A stretch of DNA of 29,656 bases, taken from the IMG/VR virus record IMGVR_UViG_2529293215_000019, one strand, 5' to 3'. A program made the translations under genes and the position numbers. The stretch's first letter is position 1. Every line of letters begins with the position of its first letter. Under the pieces are notes generated by a model. The model saw only the letters and a program-made list of their open reading frames with translations. It had not been told where the DNA came from and made no database searches. Of the stretch, positions 3,627-24,244 are shown piece by piece. The stretch comes from a virus (Duplodnaviria; Heunggongvirae; Uroviricota; Caudoviricetes).

Positions 3627-5898
3627 AGCCTCCGGGCGTTTTGTCCCTCCGTCAGCATTTGCCGCAGGCACCGGTAAGACGTTTACCGGTGCTTATGCAT
3701 GGAACGCGCCACGCGAGGCCGTCGGGCGCGAAAGACCCCTTACACGTGACGAGATGCGTCAGGTGCAAGGTGTTTTATCCACGATTAACCGCCTGCCTTA
3801 CTTTTTGCGCTCGCTGTTTACTTCACGCTATGAATACATCCGGCGCAATAAAAGCCCGGTGCACGGGTTTTATTTCCTCACATCCACTTTTCAGCGTCGT
3901 TTATGGCCGCGCATTGAGCGTGTGAATCAGCGCCATGAAATGAACACCGACGCGTCGTTGCTGTTTCTGGCAGAGCGTGACCACTATGCGCGCCTGCCGG
4001 GAATGAATGACAAGGAGCTGAAAAAGTTTGCCGCCCGTATCTCATCGCAGCTTTTCATGATGTATGAGGAACTCAGCGATGCCTGGGTGGATGCACATGG
4101 CGAAAAAGAATCGCTGTTTACGGATGAGGCGCAGGCTCACCTCTATGGTCATGTTGCTGGCGCTGCACGTGCTTTCAATATTTCCCCGCTTTACTGGAAA
4201 AAATACCGTAAAGGACAGATGACCACGAGGCAGGCATATTCTGCCATTGCCCGTCTGTTTAACGATGAGTGGTGGACTCATCAGCTCAAAGGCCAGCGTA
4301 TGCGCTGGCATGAGGCGTTACTGATTGCTGTCGGGGAGGTCAATAAAGACCGTTCTCCTTATGCCAGTAAACATGCCATTCGTGATGTGCGTGCACGCCG
4401 CCAGGCAAATCTGGAATTTCTTAAATCGTGTGACCTTGAAAACAGGGAAACCGGCGAGCGCATCGACCTTATCAGTAAGGTGATAGGCAGTATTTCTAAT
4501 CCTGAAATTCGCCGGATGGAGCTGATGAACACCATTGCCGGTATTGAGCGTTACGCCGCAGCAGAGGGTGATGTGGGGATGTTTATCACGCTGACCGCGC
4601 CGTCAAAGTATCACCCGACACGTCAGGTCGGAAAAGGCGAAAGTAAAACCGTCCAGCTAAATCACGGCTGGAACGATGAGGCATTTAATCCAAAGGATGC
4701 GCAGCGATATCTCTGCCATATCTGGAGCCTGATGCGCACGGCATTCAAGGATAATGATTTACAGGTCTACGGTTTGCGTGTCGTCGAGCCACACCACGAC
4801 GGAACGCCGCACTGGCATATGATGCTTTTTTGTAATCCACGCCAGCGTAACCAGATTATCGAAATCATGCGTCGCTATGCGCTCAAAGAGGATGGCGACG
4901 AAAGAGGAGCCGCGCGAAACCGTTTTCAGGCAAAACACCTTAACCGGGGCGGTGCTGCGGGATATATCGCGAAATACATTTCAAAAAATATCGACGGCTA
5001 TGCACTGGATGGTCAGCTCGATAACGATACCGGTAAGCCGCTTAAAGATACTGCCGCGGCTGTTACCGCATGGGCGTCAACGTGGCGCATCCCGCAATTT
5101 AAAACGGTTGGACTGCCGACAATGGGGGCTTACCGTGAACTACGCAAATTGCCTCGCGGCGTCAGCATTGCTGATGAGTTTGACGAGCGCGTCGAGGCTG
5201 CACGCGCCGCTGCAGACAGTGGTGATTTTGCGTTGTATATCAGCGCGCAGGGCGGGGCAAATGTCCCGCGCGATTGCCAGACTGTCAGGGTCGCCCGTAG
5301 CCCGTCGGATGACGTTAACGAGTACGAGGAAGAAGTCGAGAGAGTGGTCGGCATTTACGCGCCGCATCTCGGCGCGCGTCATATTCATATCACCAGAACG
5401 ACGGACTGGCGCATTGTGCCGAAAGTTCCGGTCGTTGAGCCTTTGACTTTAAAAAGCGGCATCGCCGCGCCTCGGAGTCCTGTCAATAACTGTGGAAAGC
5501 TCATCGGTGGTGATACTTCGTTACCGGCTCCCACGCCTTCTGAGCACGCCGCAGCAGTGCTTAATCTGGTTGATGACGGTGTTATCGAATGGAATGACCC
5601 GGAGGTCGTGAGGGCGCTCAGGGGCGCATTAAAACACGGCCTGAGAAGACCAAACCGTCAGCAAAGAAACGGAAGCCCGTTAAAACCGCATGAAATAGCG
5701 CCATCGGCCAGACTGACCCGGTCGGAAAGAATGCAAATTACCCGTATCCGCGTTGACCTTGCTCAGAACGGTATCAGGCCGCAGCGATGGGAGCTTGAGG
5801 CGCTGGCGCGTGGTGCGACCGTAGATTACAACGGGAAAAAATTTACGTATCCGGTCGCTGATGAGTGGAGTTGGTTTTATTGTTATTCAGAGCAATAA
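3616..5898 (+). CDS. A: rolling-circle replication initiation endonuclease (P2 gpA-like)
   Basis: ORF of about 760 aa from the first ATG (3616; the track start at 3574 is TTG); contains a paired-tyrosine segment AGYIAKYISKNIDGY typical of rolling-circle initiators; position and size match P2 gene A. Confidence 0.88.
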   Translation: MAVKASGRFVPPSAFAAGTGKTFTGAYAWNAPREAVGRERPLTRDEMRQVQGVLSTINRLPYFLRSLFTSRYEYIRRNKSPVHGFYFLTSTFQRRLWPRIERVNQRHEMNTDASLLFLAERDHYARLPGMNDKELKKFAARISSQLFMMYEELSDAWVDAHGEKESLFTDEAQAHLYGHVAGAARAFNISPLYWKKYRKGQMTTRQAYSAIARLFNDEWWTHQLKGQRMRWHEALLIAVGEVNKDRSPYASKHAIRDVRARRQANLEFLKSCDLENRETGERIDLISKVIGSISNPEIRRMELMNTIAGIERYAAAEGDVGMFITLTAPSKYHPTRQVGKGESKTVQLNHGWNDEAFNPKDAQRYLCHIWSLMRTAFKDNDLQVYGLRVVEPHHDGTPHWHMMLFCNPRQRNQIIEIMRRYALKEDGDERGAARNRFQAKHLNRGGAAGYIAKYISKNIDGYALDGQLDNDTGKPLKDTAAAVTAWASTWRIPQFKTVGLPTMGAYRELRKLPRGVSIADEFDERVEAARAAADSGDFALYISAQGGANVPRDCQTVRVARSPSDDVNEYEEEVERVVGIYAPHLGARHIHITRTTDWRIVPKVPVVEPLTLKSGIAAPRSPVNNCGKLIGGDTSLPAPTPSEHAAAVLNLVDDGVIEWNDPEVVRALRGALKHGLRRPNRQQRNGSPLKPHEIAPSARLTRSERMQITRIRVDLAQNGIRPQRWELEALARGATVDYNGKKFTYPVADEWSWFYCYSEQ

Positions 5899-5970
5899 AC
5901 ATCTGATTTAATTTGTTGCATAATAGTAAAATTGCTGTTTATCTGCATGTGGTAACTATTGATAATTATG

Positions 5971-5998
5971 TTGCTAATAATGTGTGCAAATTTATACT
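5971..5998 (+). promoter_or_regulatory. candidate sigma70 promoter for the cargo gene
   Basis: TTGCTA (5971-5976), 16-bp spacer, TATACT (5993-5998), in a very AT-rich 116-bp leader; followed by AAGGTGA SD and ATG at 6015. Confidence 0.5.
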
Positions 5999-6014
5999 GA
6001 AAAAGGTGAAAACG

Positions 6015-7847
6015 ATGAATGATATCTTTGTTCTTACAAGGGAAGAGCTTGAAACACTAGATTATAGTGTTTTTATGCATATACCAGTTACATTTCATGC
6101 ACATAAAATAAAAAAATATCTGGATGGGATTGCTGAATCATCAGAAAACCCCAAAGAGAAAAAATTAGCATCTCTTTTTGGTATGCTATATAGTTTCAAT
6201 TTGCAAGTTGTTAACAACACTCCATCATTTGAACCCCAAATGATTTGGGGTAATAAAAGATCAATATTGCCTGAAGATTTTGATGAGCAGGTGAATGACT
6301 GTCTTTTATATGTTTCTCAAAAAATAACCAATCCATTTTTGTTATCAAGAATATATGATGTTGTTTGGTGTAATAATCGGAAAAATAAAGACGTGGCAAT
6401 TAAAGCAATTGATTCCTATGCTGAAATGCTAAATATAGCAATTGAAAGACTAATAATAAAAAACGAAAGCATGGATGAAAGTGATTTAAATTGCTTTATT
6501 TTTGCTCGTGATTATATTGCTAGGGCTTTGCACATTAATAAAATGGTCTACCCTAGAAAATCAGAAGGAAACATGGCGATTAAAAATGCCATTCATTCTC
6601 TTTATAGTATTCAAAATGAAAGATTAATCTTTGAAGGTTTCAATAATTTGACTTGGTTTATGGTGCGTGATTTTGATGGGTATAATCTGCAGTATGCGGA
6701 AAATGCTGAGAAGATGGCTGAGCAGCATAAAGATAAAAAATATTATGATGCTGTAAAATCACTTTATATGACAAGTGCAGTTATTTATGAAAAAAATGGT
6801 GAGTATGAACGTGCCAAGAGATGTAAACTGGCATCTGCAAATATTACTATTAAAGTTGCAACAGATCGACCTGATAATATGGGTAAGATCTCTTGGTTAA
6901 GAACAGCTATCTCTGAATTAAGACAGTACGGTGGTGATAGCCAACAGATAGAAGATTTAAAGGAACAACTTGCTAATTTGAGAGAAGAAGTAAGGAGTGA
7001 ATATGTCACTTTAAGCCATTCTATTGATATTAGTGACTTGGTTGCTGAAAGTGAAAAAAAACTGACGGGGCGTTCTTTGCCCGATATATTCAAAGTTTTA
7101 ATGCGTGAAACACCGATTGAAAATATTGAAAGCATGAGGGAGCAAGTTTTAAGATTATCAGAAAAAAGTTTATTCTCTAGTTTTGTTGGAACAGAAATTA
7201 ATGATGAGAGTGGGCGTAAGGTATATACAATCCCGCCGTTGGATAATAAAAAAGATATGAGTGATGATGTTGTTATTGATCAATATCTAAGAAATTTCGA
7301 GATTACTCATAAGATTTTTGTAAACGGTGTCTTTGAACCTGCTCGCTATGTACTTTCTCAAGAACATGGCTTGACGTTGTCAACATTCGTTAAATTAGTT
7401 ACAACTAGTCCAATTGTCAAGCCGGAGTTTAGGGAGATTTTTAATTTGGGCTTTTACAAATTATGGCAGGGAGATTACATCAGTGCAGCTTATCTTTTAA
7501 TACCACAAATGGAAGGTATGGTTCGTTATTATTATGAGCTTAGTGGAAAGGATGCTACTAGATATTTGGATAAGGGATTAGAGGAGTCAACAAGTATTTC
7601 TCAGCTTCTAGATAAATGCAGAGATGATTTGGAAAGTATCTTTTCTAAGAATCTTGTTTTAACTATCGATGTTCTTTTTAATAGAAAGAGTGGGGCAACC
7701 TTAAGACATAAATTAGCACATGGTAATTTATATACTAATGCTTGTTACGATGAAACAACGACATATGCATGCATCCTGATTTTCTTTCTGTGTGCTTATC
7801 CTCTCCTACCATATTTTGATACTGTATTTGAACAGGGCTCTGTTTGA
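6015..7847 (+). CDS. hypothetical 610-aa protein in the A-cos variable locus; candidate anti-phage defence / abortive-infection protein with C-terminal HEPN-like R-x4-H motif
   Basis: Long uninterrupted ORF; first ATG at 6015 with AAGGTGA SD (track start at 5913 is TTG); markedly AT-rich by eye versus GC-rich flanking phage genes; occupies the P2 tin/old position; RHKLAHG motif at 7704-7724. No family recognised from sequence alone. Confidence 0.8.
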   Translation: MNDIFVLTREELETLDYSVFMHIPVTFHAHKIKKYLDGIAESSENPKEKKLASLFGMLYSFNLQVVNNTPSFEPQMIWGNKRSILPEDFDEQVNDCLLYVSQKITNPFLLSRIYDVVWCNNRKNKDVAIKAIDSYAEMLNIAIERLIIKNESMDESDLNCFIFARDYIARALHINKMVYPRKSEGNMAIKNAIHSLYSIQNERLIFEGFNNLTWFMVRDFDGYNLQYAENAEKMAEQHKDKKYYDAVKSLYMTSAVIYEKNGEYERAKRCKLASANITIKVATDRPDNMGKISWLRTAISELRQYGGDSQQIEDLKEQLANLREEVRSEYVTLSHSIDISDLVAESEKKLTGRSLPDIFKVLMRETPIENIESMREQVLRLSEKSLFSSFVGTEINDESGRKVYTIPPLDNKKDMSDDVVIDQYLRNFEITHKIFVNGVFEPARYVLSQEHGLTLSTFVKLVTTSPIVKPEFREIFNLGFYKLWQGDYISAAYLLIPQMEGMVRYYYELSGKDATRYLDKGLEESTSISQLLDKCRDDLESIFSKNLVLTIDVLFNRKSGATLRHKLAHGNLYTNACYDETTTYACILIFFLCAYPLLPYFDTVFEQGSV

Positions 7848-7874
7848 TAACGTATACGTTGAGGCATAAAACCT

Positions 7875-7921
7875 ATGCATACTTAGCTGCATCAATTTGC
7901 ACGAGGTATTTCAGTATGCAT
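7875..7921 (+). terminator. candidate stem-loop downstream of the cargo gene
   Basis: 9-bp inverted repeat ATGCATACT (7875-7883) / AGTATGCAT (7913-7921) followed by TTTTCTG; the loop is long (29 nt), so terminator function is uncertain. Confidence 0.3.
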
Positions 7922-7998
7922 TTTCTGCGTAATAGTAGGGATTGCTTGGTTTGGTAGTTGTAATTCAACTGCATTCAAACCGACCCATGAAGCGGGCG

Positions 7999-17367: not shown

Positions 17368-17399
17368 TTGTGCCATTCCCGACACCTCATCGTCACATT

Positions 17400-17421
17400 G
17401 CCGCCGGTATGACCCGGCGGC
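17400..17421 (+). terminator. candidate stem-loop between S and V (possible end of the O-S late operon)
   Basis: GCCGCCGG-TATGAC-CCGGCGGC: 8-bp GC-rich stem, 6-nt loop, 33 nt after the S stop; no strong U-run follows. Confidence 0.35.
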
Positions 17422-17433
17422 ATCCTTCCCGTT

Positions 17434-18069
17434 ATGAACACTCTCGCAAATATTCAGGAACTCGCGCGCGCACTGCGCAACATAATCCGCACCGGCATTA
17501 TCGTCGAAACCGACCTTAACGCCGGTCGCTGCCGTGTGCAGACCGGCGGCATGTGCACCGACTGGCTTCAGTGGCTGACCCATCGCGCCGGACGTTCGCG
17601 CACATGGTGGGCACCTTCCGTGGGGGAACAGGTGCTGATTCTGGCCGTGGGCGGTGAACTCGACACGGCGTTCGTTCTGCCGGGGATTTATTCTGGCGAT
17701 AACCCCGCGCCGTCTGCGTCGGCGGATGCCCTGCATATCCGTTTCCCTGACGGGGCGGTGATTGAGTATGAACCCGAAACCAGTGCACTCACGGTAAGCG
17801 GAATTAAAACGGCCAGCGTGACGGCTTCTGATTCTGTTACTGCCACGGTGCCGGTGGTCACGGTGAAAGCATCAACCCGCGTTACCCTGGACACACCGGA
17901 GGTGGTCTGCACCAGCAGGCTGATTACCGGCACGCTGGAAGTGCAGAAGGGCGGAACGATGCACGGCAACATTGAACATACCGGTGGTGAACTCTCATCA
18001 AACGGTAAGGTACTGCATACCCATAAACACCCCGGCGACAGCGGCGGCACAACCGGGAGTCCTCTATGA
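17434..18069 (+). CDS. V: baseplate central spike protein (P2 gpV-like)
   Basis: 211 aa, the length of P2 gpV; first gene of the baseplate operon. Confidence 0.85.
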   Translation: MNTLANIQELARALRNIIRTGIIVETDLNAGRCRVQTGGMCTDWLQWLTHRAGRSRTWWAPSVGEQVLILAVGGELDTAFVLPGIYSGDNPAPSASADALHIRFPDGAVIEYEPETSALTVSGIKTASVTASDSVTATVPVVTVKASTRVTLDTPEVVCTSRLITGTLEVQKGGTMHGNIEHTGGELSSNGKVLHTHKHPGDSGGTTGSPL

Positions 18070-19326: not shown

Positions 19327-19930
19327 TTCGCGACTGCTGCCGACCGGCTCATCACCGCTTGAAGTCGCCGCCGCAAAAGCCTGTGCGGAAATTGAAAAAA
19401 CGCCGGTCAGTATTCGTGAGCTGTGGAACCCGGATACCTGTCCGGCAAATCTGCTGCCGTGGCTGGCGTGGTCATTTTCGGTTGACCGCTGGGATGATAA
19501 ATGGCCGGAAGCGACAAAACGCGCTGTTATCCGCGATGCGTATTTCATTCACTGCCATAAGGGTACTATAGGCGCAATCCGGCGTGTGGTGGAGCCGCTC
19601 GGCTATCTGATTGAGGTGAGGGAGTGGTGGCAGCTCAACGAGGAGCCGGGGACGTTCCGCATCGTTGTTGGCGTGCTTGAGCAGGGTATTACCGAGGAAA
19701 TGTATCAGGAGCTGGAGCGTCTCGTTGCTGATGCAAAACCGGCAAGCCGCCATCTGACGGGACTGGCTATCAGTTTAAGTACAACCGGCAACATTTTTGC
19801 CGGTGCGGGATGCTATCACGGTGACGCCCTGACGGTTTATCCCTACACCCCGGAGGCCATTATTGTCGGAGGGGATTATTTCCCGGCCTCGGCCATTCAT
19901 TTAATTGATAACCTGAGAGTAAACGCATGA
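19319..19930 (+). CDS. I: baseplate protein (P2 gpI-like)
   Basis: 203 aa; ATG at 19319 overlaps the J stop and the stop overlaps the H start; somewhat longer than the 176 aa I recall for P2 gpI. Confidence 0.8.
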   Translation: MSDSRLLPTGSSPLEVAAAKACAEIEKTPVSIRELWNPDTCPANLLPWLAWSFSVDRWDDKWPEATKRAVIRDAYFIHCHKGTIGAIRRVVEPLGYLIEVREWWQLNEEPGTFRIVVGVLEQGITEEMYQELERLVADAKPASRHLTGLAISLSTTGNIFAGAGCYHGDALTVYPYTPEAIIVGGDYFPASAIHLIDNLRVNA

Positions 19931-21120
19931 CAGTGAAATACTACGCCATTCTGACTAATCAGGGCGCAGCACGGCTGGCTAACGCGACGATGCTCGGCAG
20001 TAAGCTGAATCTGACGCAAATGGCCGTTGGTGATGCGAATGGTGTCTTGCCGACACCAGACCCGGCACAGACAAAACTGATTAACCAGAAACGCATCGCG
20101 CCGCTGAATCTTCTGAGTGTTGACCCGAACAACCAGAGCCAGATTATTGCGGAGCAAATCATCCCTGAGAACGAGGGTGGATTCTGGATCCGTGAGATTG
20201 GGCTTTATGATGATGAAGGCGTACTCATTGCGGTGGCGAACTGCCCGGAAACGTACAAACCGCAGTTGCAGGAAGGCAGTGGTCGTACCCAGACTATCCG
20301 CATGATTCTGGTTGTCACGAATACCGAAGCTATCACGCTGAAAATCGACCCGTCGGTGGTACTGGCGACCCGTAAATACGTGGATGATGAAGTCCTGGAA
20401 TTAAAGCTGTATGTGGATGACCAGATGAGAAACCACATTGCCGCACAGGATCCTCATACCCAGTATGCGCAGAAACATAATCCGACATTTACCGGAGAAC
20501 CAAAAGCGCCGACGCCTGCCGCAGGAAATAACACCACGCGGATTGCGACCACTGAGTTTGTTCAGGCCGCTATTACCGCTCTGATTAACGGTGCGCCAGC
20601 CACGCTGGACACACTGAAAGAAATTGCCGCAGCCATTAACAATGACCCGAAATTCAGTACCACCATTAACAATGCGCTGTCAGGTAAGCAGCCACTGGAT
20701 GAGACGCTGACTCATTTGAGTGGAAAGGATGTTGCCGGTCTTCTCGCATACCTTGGTTTGGGAGAAGCGGCAAAACGGAATGTAGGTAACGGGCAAAACC
20801 AAATTCCGGATATGGCGGCGTTTGCCAGTTCACTTTCATCAACGGGTTTTCAAAAACTTCCTTCAGGTCTGATTATTCAGTGGGGTATTGTCAGTGGAGC
20901 ATCAAACTATACGGTGACTTACCCGGTAACATTCCCAAATCGTTCACTTGCGCTGTTGGCTGTGCCACATACAACGTCGGTGGCTGGTATATCTGCAATG
21001 GGCATAGCGAACTGTTCTGATATCAGCAAATCACAGTTCTATATAATTGTTGGCGGTATATCTCAGGGAGAAATTGTCAAATATGAAAGATCCTGTTTTT
21101 GGGTAGCAATCGGTGTATAG
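19927..21120 (+). CDS. H: tail fibre protein (gpH-like), constant N-terminal part fused to invertible C-terminal variable part
   Basis: 397 aa; ATG at 19927; the last ~110 codons lie inside the invertible segment, downstream of the 34-bp repeat at 20753-20786. Confidence 0.8.
   Translation: MTVKYYAILTNQGAARLANATMLGSKLNLTQMAVGDANGVLPTPDPAQTKLINQKRIAPLNLLSVDPNNQSQIIAEQIIPENEGGFWIREIGLYDDEGVLIAVANCPETYKPQLQEGSGRTQTIRMILVVTNTEAITLKIDPSVVLATRKYVDDEVLELKLYVDDQMRNHIAAQDPHTQYAQKHNPTFTGEPKAPTPAAGNNTTRIATTEFVQAAITALINGAPATLDTLKEIAAAINNDPKFSTTINNALSGKQPLDETLTHLSGKDVAGLLAYLGLGEAAKRNVGNGQNQIPDMAAFASSLSSTGFQKLPSGLIIQWGIVSGASNYTVTYPVTFPNRSLALLAVPHTTSVAGISAMGIANCSDISKSQFYIIVGGISQGEIVKYERSCFWVAIGV
20753..20786. 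repeat. left 34-bp inverted repeat (invertase crossover site) inside gene H
   Basis: TTGGTTTGGGAGAAGCGGCAAAACGGAATGTAGG; the perfect reverse complement occurs at 22300-22333. Confidence 0.8.
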
Positions 21121-21128
21121 GTATATCT

Positions 21129-21524
21129 ATGATTTATTTCTCAAAATCGACTAATGGTTTTTTCTTTGATGGTATAAACAGCGACATGCCTGCTGACATT
21201 GTTGAGATAAGTACAGACTTATACAATGAATTAATTGCCGGACAGCAGGAAGGGGGTAAATTAATCACGTCAGATGAAAATGGTTTACCGGTACTGAAAT
21301 CTCCGGCGATTGATTATGTCGCACGTGCTGAAAATCAGCGAATGCAGTTACTTGCTCATGCCGATAATGTCACAGCTGACTGGCGGGTGGAATTAATGCT
21401 TGGTGATATCAGCAGTACAGATAAAGAAAAACTATCTGCCTGGATGGACTACAAAAAAGAAGTAAAAGCCGTCGACACTTCGACGGCTCCTGAGATTAGC
21501 TGGCCTGAGTTACCGGAGGTGTAG
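21129..21524 (+). CDS. tail fibre assembly protein (Tfa, orientation 1)
   Basis: 131 aa from the first ATG (21129), directly after the H stop; C-terminus VDTSTAPEISWPELPEV resembles the conserved Tfa C-terminal segment and is shared with the minus-strand copy. Confidence 0.7.
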   Translation: MIYFSKSTNGFFFDGINSDMPADIVEISTDLYNELIAGQQEGGKLITSDENGLPVLKSPAIDYVARAENQRMQLLAHADNVTADWRVELMLGDISSTDKEKLSAWMDYKKEVKAVDTSTAPEISWPELPEV

Positions 21525-21939
21525 GCCATTCAATATCTGGAGCACTGGAGGTATCCACCAGTTCCAGTGCGTCCAGGTAATCCAGCCACAAATTATATTG
21601 CGCCAGTTCCTCACCTTTCAGACGACCAATAGCTGCTTTGCCAGGCCATTGCTTACTGTTCATGTATTCGTTAGCCTGGTTAATTAGTAGCTGTCTTTCT
21701 GATTCAGTAATTTCAATAAGCTCTTCATGCGTGGGTGGAGGAATATCTGCCCACGCAGGCAGCCCATCATCTCCGGCAATACGGATTTTTCCTTGTGGCG
21801 GTTCAGCCATAAACTCACTGATAATATTTTGATTTACTTCCTTAGCGTCTGATAAATCCCATCCCTCTGATTTATATTTATCAATCATATCCACAGGGAA
21901 AAAAGCATTATGCCTTGCGCTATAAACATATTCGTTCAT
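21496..21939 (-). CDS. tail fibre assembly protein (Tfa', orientation 2)
   Basis: 147 aa from the ATG at 21939 (GGGTGA SD; track start at 21948 is GTG); C-terminus VDTSSAPDIEWPTPPV parallels the plus-strand Tfa; 3' end overlaps the plus-strand tfa by 29 bp. Confidence 0.65.
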   Translation of the reverse strand: MNEYVYSARHNAFFPVDMIDKYKSEGWDLSDAKEVNQNIISEFMAEPPQGKIRIAGDDGLPAWADIPPPTHEELIEITESERQLLINQANEYMNSKQWPGKAAIGRLKGEELAQYNLWLDYLDALELVDTSSAPDIEWPTPPVTQAS

Positions 21940-21959
21940 ATAAATCACCCTGAATAAAA

Positions 21960-22333
21960 TTACTCACCAACAGCCCACCAACTGTAATTCATCGATACTG
22001 TGGAGCTGGTTGATGCAGTTCTGTAAGCGGAATTAAAACCGGTTAGTGTTGGACCTTCTGCAGTCATCACGAATCCCCGTCCAGCGCCTAAAGGCGCACC
22101 ACCATCACCAGAATGGGTAAGCATGGCGCAGTCCACTTTTTTAGGAAAAGGGATGCTGAATGTAATTCTCATTGTTTGCGTCGATAATGTCGGCGTAATC
22201 GCACCACGACCATATTGCAGGATTTTCCCGTTGGGTAATTTCATCCATCCATCACCACTGGCAAAAGAGGTCATGTCCGGTATCTGATTTTCCCCCGTTC
22301 CTACATTCCGTTTTGCCGCTTCTCCCAAACCAA
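21960..22333 (-). other. alternative tail-fibre C-terminal coding segment (Hv'), without its own start; fused to H only after inversion
   Basis: Minus-strand reading frame through the right repeat encodes [24 protein letters not shown]..., paralleling the H segment [25 protein letters not shown]... after the left repeat; stop at 21960-21962. Confidence 0.65.
22300..22333. repeat. right 34-bp inverted repeat (invertase crossover site)
   Basis: Reverse complement of 22300-22333 is identical to 20753-20786. Confidence 0.8.
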
Positions 22334-22400
22334 CGTTTATGAAAATGCAGAGATAACGGGCAAGTGGCATCATCTCCGGTTTTTATTCAGGGGGATGCTC

Positions 22401-22994
22401 ATGCTTATTGGCTATGTACGCGTGTCGACAAATGACCAGAACACGGAATTGCAGCGTAACGCGCTGGAGTGCGCAGGATGCGAGCGGATTTTTGAGGATA
22501 AAATCAGCGGCACGAAGTCCGACCGACCGGGACTGAAAAAACTGCTCAGAACATTATCAGCAGGTGACACTCTGGTAGTCTGGAAGCTGGACAGGCTGGG
22601 GCGTAGTATGCGGCATCTGGTCATTCTGGTTGAGGAACTGCGCGAACGCGGCGTTAATTTTCGCAGCCTGACAGATGCTATTGATACCAGCACGCCGATG
22701 GGGCGTTTTTTCTTTCATGTGATGGGTGCCCTGGCTGAAATGGAACGAGAGCTCATTGTCGAGCGGACTCGGGCCGGGCTGGAAGCGGCCAGAGCCAAAG
22801 GTCGTATTGGTGGCAGACGTCCTAAACTCACCGCGAGTGAGTGGGAGCAGGCCGGGCGTTTGCTGGCTGCAGGGGAGTCACGTCAACGCGTGGCACTGAT
22901 TTTTGATATTGGTCTGTCCACGCTCTATAAAAAATTTCCCTCATCAGCGACAAAGAATAAATTGTGTCATCCCTTAGCCAACCGGGACAAATAG
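22401..22994 (+). CDS. serine recombinase DNA invertase (Gin/Cin/Pin/Hin family)
   Basis: N-terminus MLIGYVRVSTNDQNTELQRNAL with the catalytic-serine motif, and HTH-containing C-terminus LSTLYKK, closely resemble Mu Gin; AGGGGGA SD upstream of the ATG at 22401; adjacent to the invertible segment. Confidence 0.9.
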   Translation: MLIGYVRVSTNDQNTELQRNALECAGCERIFEDKISGTKSDRPGLKKLLRTLSAGDTLVVWKLDRLGRSMRHLVILVEELRERGVNFRSLTDAIDTSTPMGRFFFHVMGALAEMERELIVERTRAGLEAARAKGRIGGRRPKLTASEWEQAGRLLAAGESRQRVALIFDIGLSTLYKKFPSSATKNKLCHPLANRDK

Positions 22995-23053
22995 CCTGAC
23001 ATCTCCGGCACAACTGAAAATACCACTCACCCATTAACCACGGAGTTAAACGG

Positions 23054-24244
23054 ATGAGTGACTATCATCACGGCGTGCAGGTGCTGGAGATTAACGACGG
23101 CACCCGCGTCATTTCCACCGTATCCACTGCCATTGTCGGCATGGTCTGCACGGCCAGCGATGCGGATGCGGAAACCTTCCCCATCAATAAACCGGTGCTG
23201 ATTACCAATGTGCAGAGCGCAATTGCAAAGGCTGGTAAAAAAGGCACGCTGGCGGCATCGTTGCAGGCCATCGCCGACCAGTCAAAACCGATCACCGTTG
23301 TCGTGCGTGTGGAAGACGGCACCGGCGACGACGAGGAAACGAAACTCGCGCAGACCGTTTCCAATATCATCGGCACCACCGACGAAAACGGTCAGTACAC
23401 AGGACTGAAAGCCCTGCTGGCGGCGGAGTCGGTAACCGGTGTTAAACCGCGTATTCTCGGCGTGCCGGGACTGGACACCAAAGAGGTGGCTGTTGCACTG
23501 GCATCAGTCTGTCAGAAGCTGCGCGCTTTCGGGTATATCAGCGCATGGGGCTGTAAAACCATTTCCGAGGTGAAAGCCTACCGTCAGAATTTCAGCCAGC
23601 GTGAGCTGATGGTCATCTGGCCGGATTTCCTCGCATGGGATACGGTCACCAGTACCACCGCCACCGCGTATGCCACCGCCCGTGCGCTGGGTTTGCGTGC
23701 CAAAATCGACCAGGAGCAGGGCTGGCATAAAACGCTGTCCAACGTCGGGGTGAACGGTGTTACCGGCATCAGCGCATCTGTATTCTGGGATTTGCAGGAG
23801 TCCGGCACCGATGCTGACCTGCTTAACGAGTCAGGCGTCACAACGCTGATTCGCCGTGACGGTTTCCGCTTCTGGGGTAACCGTACCTGCTCTGATGACC
23901 CGCTGTTCCTCTTTGAAAACTACACCCGCACCGCGCAGGTGCTGGCCGACACGATGGCTGAGGCGCACATGTGGGCGGTGGACAAGCCCATCACCGCAAC
24001 GCTGATTCGCGACATCGTTGACGGCATTAATGCCAAATTCCGTGAGCTGAAAACAAACGGCTATATCGTGGATGCGACCTGCTGGTTCAGCGAAGAATCC
24101 AACGATGCGGAAACCCTCAAGGCCGGAAAACTGTATATCGACTACGACTATACCCCGGTGCCTCCTCTCGAAAACCTGACCCTGCGCCAGCGTATTACCG
24201 ATAAATACCTGGCAAATCTGGTCACCTCGGTTAACAGCAATTAA
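23054..24244 (+). CDS. FI: contractile tail sheath protein (P2 gpFI-like)
   Basis: 396 aa, the length of P2 gpFI; ACGGAG SD; followed by the tail tube gene. Confidence 0.9.
   Translation: MSDYHHGVQVLEINDGTRVISTVSTAIVGMVCTASDADAETFPINKPVLITNVQSAIAKAGKKGTLAASLQAIADQSKPITVVVRVEDGTGDDEETKLAQTVSNIIGTTDENGQYTGLKALLAAESVTGVKPRILGVPGLDTKEVAVALASVCQKLRAFGYISAWGCKTISEVKAYRQNFSQRELMVIWPDFLAWDTVTSTTATAYATARALGLRAKIDQEQGWHKTLSNVGVNGVTGISASVFWDLQESGTDADLLNESGVTTLIRRDGFRFWGNRTCSDDPLFLFENYTRTAQVLADTMAEAHMWAVDKPITATLIRDIVDGINAKFRELKTNGYIVDATCWFSEESNDAETLKAGKLYIDYDYTPVPPLENLTLRQRITDKYLANLVTSVNSN

Follow-up and report, generated by a model that had tools for sequence, protein, structure and literature searches.

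The 29,656-nucleotide stretch of DNA analyzed here (the window) contains, beside a set of tail-fibre genes, an open reading frame that a preliminary description called a Gin-like serine invertase and located at the position of the Z/fun accessory locus of phage P2. This raises the questions of whether the gene encodes a functional invertase, which DNA would be inverted, and whether the locus represents an exchange of hotspot cargo or the replacement of something larger. The explanation that accounts best for the evidence as a whole, and which we regard as very probable, is that a working small serine recombinase of the Pin/Gin type inverts a 1577-bp segment and switches tail-fibre cassettes.

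The DNA invertase gene, a member of the Pin/Fin/Gin/Cin subfamily of small serine recombinases, occupies positions 22401-22994 on the + strand (197 aa, stop codon included in the coordinates), and its product begins with MLIGYVRVSTNDQNT. A second in-frame ATG is found at 22395, immediately adjoining a GGGGG ribosome-binding stretch, and since all homologues start with MLIGY, 22401 is the likely start. Pfam identifies a Resolvase domain (PF00239, E=8e-53) followed by an HTH_7 domain (PF02796, E=1e-12, residues 138-181). The solved Gin structures 3uj3 and 4m6f match residues 1-182 (E about 1e-94), with Ser9 aligned to the serine of Gin 4m6f, and the Hin DNA-binding domain 1hcr matches residues 139-188; an NCBIfam search of the protein returned no equivalog, and only sub-threshold matches to other serine-recombinase models. 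The reading frame, the domains and the match to the Gin structures all agree with a Gin-like serine invertase of 197 aa at this position. The C-terminus had been described as ending in STLYKK, and this needs correction, because the translation continues for 19 more residues (FPSSATKNKLCHPLANRDK).

The catalytic set is complete (Y5, R7, S9, D33, R42, D64, R65, and R68), and on alignment Ser9 lies within YVRVST, so that the catalytic serine context is retained. In Hin, residues K47, K/R48, K/R51, Q151, R154, and L155 contact Fis and the enhancer and are conserved in Fis/enhancer-dependent invertases, not in resolvases, with positions 47, 48, and 51 being basic residues of helix B (PMC3798978); the counterparts of all six are present here (K46, K47, R50, Q150, R153, and L154). 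Values of dN/dS between 0.07 and 0.12, obtained in comparisons with pro483, pinE and gin, point to strong purifying selection on the gene. Positions 106 and 114, which we take to be the sites of hyperactivating, Fis-independent mutations in Gin, are wild type in the invertase (H106 and M114), and both solved Gin chains, 3uj3 and 4m6f, carry M114V. The reading of this gene as a degraded remnant was rejected in view of the intact reading frame, the conserved residues and the dN/dS values.

Pairwise comparison placed the protein closest to the invertase of pro483 (97.0% identity), followed by PinE (86.7%), Fin (84.7%), Mu Gin (79.6%), and P1 Cin (78.0%). Judged by these identities, the invertase belongs with the Pin/Fin branch; 'Gin-like' is correct as a family label, but PinE and Fin are nearer than Mu Gin, to which the preliminary description had considered the protein very close. 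The invertases of pro483, S164, and the 'P2' prophage of O157:H43 T22 (Peduovirus) are 97-99% identical, have 197 aa with the same C-terminal tail, and have the same junction to pF/FI as the window, but the cassettes of their invertible segments are partly different. In pro483, the cassette that is silent in the window adjoins the constant part of H, which is the opposite orientation.

If the protein is an invertase of this type, a pair of inverted recombination sites would be expected nearby. An 89-nt inverted repeat (81%) is present at 20741-20829 and 22257-22345, and its outer ends form two 26-bp sites, a distal one within tail-fibre gene H at 20741-20766 (TTCTCGCATACC TT GGTTTGGGAGAA, core TT at 20753-20754), and an invertase-proximal one at 22320-22345 (TTCTCCCAAACC AA CGTTTATGAAAA, core AA at 22332-22333). 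The two sites are in inverted orientation with matching core dinucleotides, resemble gix and cix, and are the only such sites that a degenerate site pattern, allowing up to 3 substitutions, detects in the window. Between the two core dinucleotides lie 1577 bp (20755-22331), the invertible segment. The center of the proximal site is 68 bp from the invertase ATG, compared to 67 bp in Mu, Fels-2, and e14.

The genes of the segment are arranged as two alternative cassettes. In its current state, gene H (19927-21120, + strand) encodes 397 aa with a Phage_tail_fib N-terminal domain and Gp53-like_C, and is composed of a constant part (19927-20754) and the variable C-terminus expressed at present (20755-21120, Gp53-like_C). 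The tail-fibre assembly gene paired with this C-terminus (21129-21524, + strand, Caudo_TAP), whose start was taken from PGAP models of near-identical prophages, follows. In the silent orientation are an alternative assembly gene (21496-21939, - strand), the 3′ end of which overlaps the other assembly gene by 29 nt, and an alternative tail-fibre C-terminal cassette (21960-22331, - strand). When the segment is inverted in silico, this silent cassette is fused in frame to the constant part, producing an intact H of 399 aa. The two variable fibre ends are 51% identical, over their first ∼65 aa only, and the two assembly proteins (chaperones) are 26% identical.

Some smaller features of the segment were also recorded. 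The overlap of the assembly genes (21496-21524) spans an imperfect palindrome, TGGCCT...AGGCCA, with a W-P motif encoded on both strands, and the annotations of e14 (tfaP/tfaE) and pro483 show the same overlap of 29 nt; a terminator-like hairpin on the - strand (21464-21491) is located just beside it. In addition, a 16-nt stretch, TTTTATTCAGGGKGAT, found just upstream of the invertase start (22381-22396), occurs a second time, with 15/16 matches and in opposite-strand orientation, immediately before the alternative assembly gene (21944-21959), and this recurrence could be due to chance or could be the trace of an earlier rearrangement.

To evaluate inversion, the 1881-nt stretch at 20600-22480, either native or with 20755-22331 reverse-complemented, was compared to 5426 complete E. 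coli genomes, and an orientation was counted when a single collinear match covered at least 80% of the query. The window orientation was found in 30 genomes and the flipped orientation also in 30, and the best matches to each orientation, O157:H7 strains among them, were 99.6-99.9% identical. O157:H7 SS TX 754-1 (L086) aligns without a gap to the in-silico flipped window along 3068 nt, a single mismatch being the only difference, and its invertase gene (WP_000905107.1, labelled 'recombinase family protein' in RefSeq) is identical to that of the window at 594/594 nt, including the private enhancer changes described below. AC-5 and AC-3, two O157:H7 isolates obtained from one soil source, agree throughout 11,881 nt except in the inverted segment, where 1513 nt of one isolate are the exact reverse complement of the other. 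The cassette at 21500-22318 was also found in viral contigs, with 94-96% identity and facing either way with respect to the invertase, and in two of these contigs (L026 and L027) the same segment is flipped with collinear flanks. Exact inversion among near-identical genomes indicates that inversion at exactly these sites happens, and that it is recent. On this comparative evidence, the segment inverts at the predicted crossover points, and the detection of inversion, on which the preliminary description had let its reading depend, comes from the comparison of the 30 and 30 genomes, of SS TX 754-1, and of AC-5 with AC-3.

Invertases of this family act with an enhancer, and the preliminary description had suggested looking for one early in the coding region. 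In the P1 record, coding nt 19-90 of cin carry the annotation of the Cin enhancer, and the stretch of the invertase gene that aligns with it, 22419-22490 (also coding nt 19-90), is the predicted Fis-dependent recombinational enhancer. It is a homologous stretch with conserved site spacing and reduced synonymous change, and is identical to P1 at 55/72 positions and to Mu at 52/72, with 68-70% identity in the remainder of the gene. Synonymous change was compared among 14 non-redundant family genes with less than 95% DNA identity to each other, using pairs that share the same amino acid. The mean synonymous difference was 0.36 for codons 7-30, compared to 0.48 for all other codons (p=0.016, one-sided Mann-Whitney), a modest signal from sequences that are phylogenetically related, and the lowest divergence of all 24-codon windows was in those starting at codons 8-9 (0.33 vs. 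0.48 outside codons 7-30). This pattern supports the presence of a conserved DNA element on top of coding constraint in the predicted enhancer.

Two candidate Fis-type elements with the pattern G-N13-C were assigned within this interval, at 22422-22436 (conserved in 5/6 family genes) and at 22471-22485 (conserved in 6/6). Their centers are 49 bp apart in the register of Fis cores that we assigned ourselves, and the spacing of the Fis sites of Hin is 48 bp. Sites at 22494-22508 and 22544-22558, chosen on the basis of G-N13-C alone, were dropped after the P1 record placed the enhancer at nt 19-90; the pattern at 22494-22508 is conserved in 6/6 genes, yet lies outside the enhancer interval, and there are 9 such conserved patterns in the first 540 nt. 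The invertase gene also contains hairpins resembling terminators, which were weak, with stems of 5-7 bp, and were treated as chance.

Two features of this region were counted against the best explanation. One is a pair of private enhancer changes, that is, changes absent from the five relatives compared (pro483, pinE, fin, gin, and cin). The first, TCA to TCG at codon 9 (G at 22427), falls in the first candidate element and creates a SalI site, and the second, CTG to CGG at codon 29 (22486-22488), replaces Leu29 with Arg. Since both are unchanged in the opposite-orientation strain SS TX 754-1, they do not obviously abolish inversion. A third non-consensus base of the enhancer, in the TGC of codon 27, is common to pinE of e14. 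The other feature is that a promoter scan detected no sigma-70-like promoter between the proximal site and the invertase ATG.

These observations bear on which enzyme performs the inversion. The query covering the invertase region matches 3 places in the O157:H7 genome that matches it exactly, and up to 8 in some E. coli genomes, and cross-complementation is reported within the family, the Salmonella H segment being a substrate of Fin, and both the H and the G segment substrates of PinE (PMC12529663); a paralogue could, as a result, have done the flipping. The copy in the window would then be silent or inactive, with inversions catalyzed in trans by Pin-family invertases of other prophages on the same chromosome. 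The missing upstream promoter consensus is also compatible with this reading, as are the two private substitutions of the predicted enhancer. We nevertheless consider it improbable, because the reading frame is intact with every catalytic and Fis-contact residue in place, selection on the gene is strongly purifying, the proximal site and its distance to the gene are conserved within 1 bp, and the codon-27 TGC is shared with e14 pinE, whose segment flips in culture (PMC4272514). Catalysis by the invertase of the window, rather than by a paralogue, is the reading we adopt, by homology.

In the mechanism we propose, invertase dimers would bind the two inverted 26-bp sites, and the site-bound dimers would form a synapse with an enhancer that carries Fis and is located within the initial ∼90 bp of the invertase coding sequence, the dependence on Fis and enhancer being expected from homology. 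Cleavage through Ser9 at the central TT/AA dinucleotides, followed by rotation, would invert the 1577-bp segment and join the other cassette, consisting of a tail-fibre C-terminus and its matching assembly chaperone, to the constant part of H, where it would be transcribed from the late V operon. We propose that a lysogen population would, by this cassette swap, release virions with two receptor specificities, a consequence for host range that is likewise drawn from homologous systems.

Comparison with these systems shows what is shared and what is particular to the window. The invertible P segment of e14 in E. coli K-12 has the arrangement seen here, with an identical proximal 26-bp site, a fibre constant part, convergent assembly genes that overlap by 29 nt, a silent cassette, and an invertase on the + strand. 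However, e14 is a defective lambdoid element in which pinE is followed by mcrA, whereas the genome here is P2-type and the module abuts the sheath-gene promoter; PinE also has 184 aa rather than 197, and the C-terminal tails differ. Fin of the Salmonella P2-like prophage Fels-2 (STM2702), which is cited as an active invertase (PMC12529663), is annotated in the Fels-2 record at the same position as the gene studied here, between the invertible tail-fibre segment and FI. Fels-2 differs in having a Felsduovirus backbone, with an FI of about 70% DNA identity, and a core dinucleotide of TC/GA instead of TT/AA, and there are about 100 bp between the fin stop and FI, so that fin, unlike the invertase gene of the window, does not overlap a late promoter. 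Mu Gin with the G segment, and P1 Cin with the C segment, are alike in chemistry, site architecture, 5′-end location of the enhancer, and role in tail-fibre switching, but they belong to different phage families, their invertible segments are longer (about 3 kb in Mu and 4.2 kb in P1), and the Mu core dinucleotide is GA/TC.

We then considered how the module is placed in the P2-like genome. By blastn, the window is 95-98% identical to P2 from Orf78 to A, at cos, from Q to S, from V to most of I, and from FI to ogr, and its genes follow the order of P2, an accessory interval separating the tail-fibre assembly gene from pF/FI, consistent with a P2-like (Peduovirus) prophage. The FI sheath gene starts at 23054, 59 bp from the invertase stop, and in the P2 annotation the interval from G to FI holds fun(Z); the invertase is accordingly located between the invertible segment and FI, at the Z/fun position, as the preliminary description had it. 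P2 homology ends at 19755 (P2 12629, inside gene I) and restarts at 22974 (P2 17572). The block between (19756-22973), which replaces P2 12630-17571, lacks P2 homology except for one short patch of 67% in H. It holds the end of gene I, H, the invertible segment, and the invertase, in place of the end of I, H, G, a terminator, and fun(Z) in P2. Since homology is lost within gene I and regained within the pF activator site, the replacement included the entire distal tail-fibre module as well as Z/fun. The P2 hotspot occupies an equivalent interval, which follows the tail-fibre assembly gene, precedes FI, and has the pF activator site as its right boundary, but contains a 1.6-kb opposite-strand gene that blocks T5 growth, while the replacement in the window also takes the end of I, H, and G. 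In terms of gene content and homology boundaries, the replacement is an e14/Mu-type invertible host-range module, not free-standing hotspot cargo, and the difference from P2 is a swap of fibre modules rather than an exchange of cargo. The window provides an example of how the P2 'Z/fun hotspot' can be overwritten along with the fibre genes as a single host-range module.

At the right boundary, the invertase gene runs into the late promoter of the F operon. The counterpart of the P2 pF activator (Ogr) binding site (P2 17555-17583) is at 22957-22985 (+ strand; blastn offset 5402), and that of the pF transcription start (P2 17626-17628) is at 23028-23030. The 3′ half of the activator-site counterpart and everything downstream of it, including the transcription-start counterpart, are near-identical to P2, and the 5′ half retains TTGTG. 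The invertase stop codon (22992-22994) is in P2-homologous DNA. The unusual C-terminal tail of the protein is explained by this junction, since the last 38 nt of the reading frame and the stop belong to the promoter. That the 3′ end of the gene overlaps the activator site is mildly unusual, the sole feature of the locus that is, and this overlap is most likely a recombination scar. One might suppose that, with no spacer between the invertase reading frame and pF, transcription of the invertase and activation of the late genes could interfere with each other, but we think this very unlikely. If it were true, Ogr bound at 22957-22985 might stop read-through from the invertase late in infection, freezing the orientation of the fibre genes during virion assembly, and read-through from the invertase might supply basal expression of the F operon.

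The preliminary description also had both accessory loci of this prophage differing from P2, with a cargo gene at tin/old and the invertase in the Z/fun interval, and this stands. The tin/old interval between A and cos (5868-7955) is replaced by one gene encoding 644 aa (5913-7847, + strand), a DUF7380 protein with a match (E about 1e-84) to PDC-S39, a candidate defence family of PADLOC. Elsewhere, the integrase (1-996, - strand), the HTH repressor (1090-1449, - strand), and most of a Cox-like gene (1476-1862, + strand) are distant from P2, with about 66-69% identity or no DNA match, which implies that the prophage differs from P2 in immunity and probably also in its attachment site. The window lacks P2 orf30, which would lie between S and V (17369-17434).

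The presence of a candidate defence gene in the same prophage is in line with a different view of the inversion, in which it mainly alters prophage tail-fibre-like proteins that protect the lysogen from other phages, rather than the host range of virions; such a role is reported for serine recombinases of K-12 cryptic prophages, and proposed for PinQ/PinR (PMC12529663, and its preprint). However, the genome appears to be a complete P2-type genome from int to ogr, its 95-98% identity to P2 spans replication, head, lysis, baseplate, and tail genes, near-identical modules are found in records of P2-like phages such as pro483 and S164, and the cassettes are standard pairs of fibre tip and chaperone. 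We regard co-option by the host as highly improbable, and retain the switching of virion tail fibres as the role of the module.

A query spanning the invertase region (22250-23060) was covered to at least 80% in 631/5426 complete E. coli genomes, O157:H7 F8092B giving a 100% match. A P2-type sheath gene starts no more than 400 bp downstream in 55 of the best 79 viral-contig relatives, and these 55 represent two backbones, 21 with an FI of at least 90% protein identity and 34 with one of about 60-70%. The same gene is annotated as a DNA invertase in pro483, MET_P1_103_31 (hin), and the O157:H43 'P2' prophage, and as a recombinase family protein in S164. Goldberg et al. (2014; PMC4272514) reported ongoing inversion in P2-like prophages of EPEC, detected by sequencing with PCR validation at 1/2 loci; the text of that paper contains no coordinates for the flipped P2-like loci of EPEC E2348/69. 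A 2024 preprint (10.1101/2024.10.15.618418) describes a DNA invertase as often present in the P2 Z/fun hotspot, with adjacent genes inverted. Previous work already documents the gene, the family to which it belongs, where it lies in P2-like prophages, and its activity, and the system is a textbook host-range switch of the Hin/Gin/Cin/Pin kind.

For the interpretation of genome sequences, O157:H7 assemblies that are otherwise identical differ in the orientation of the 1.6-kb segment, and this real polymorphism should be taken neither as a misassembly nor as a phylogenetic marker. The flipped state is, in addition, misannotated by PGAP as a broken tail-fibre gene. In flipped-state O157:H7 prophages (SS TX 754-1, L086 2328-3527; AC-3, L088 4328-5527), RefSeq/PGAP gives an incomplete pseudogene and a separate gp53-like open reading frame. 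In SS TX 754-1 the translated frame is an intact 399 aa, so that the split annotation of this strain is an artefact of the inversion state.
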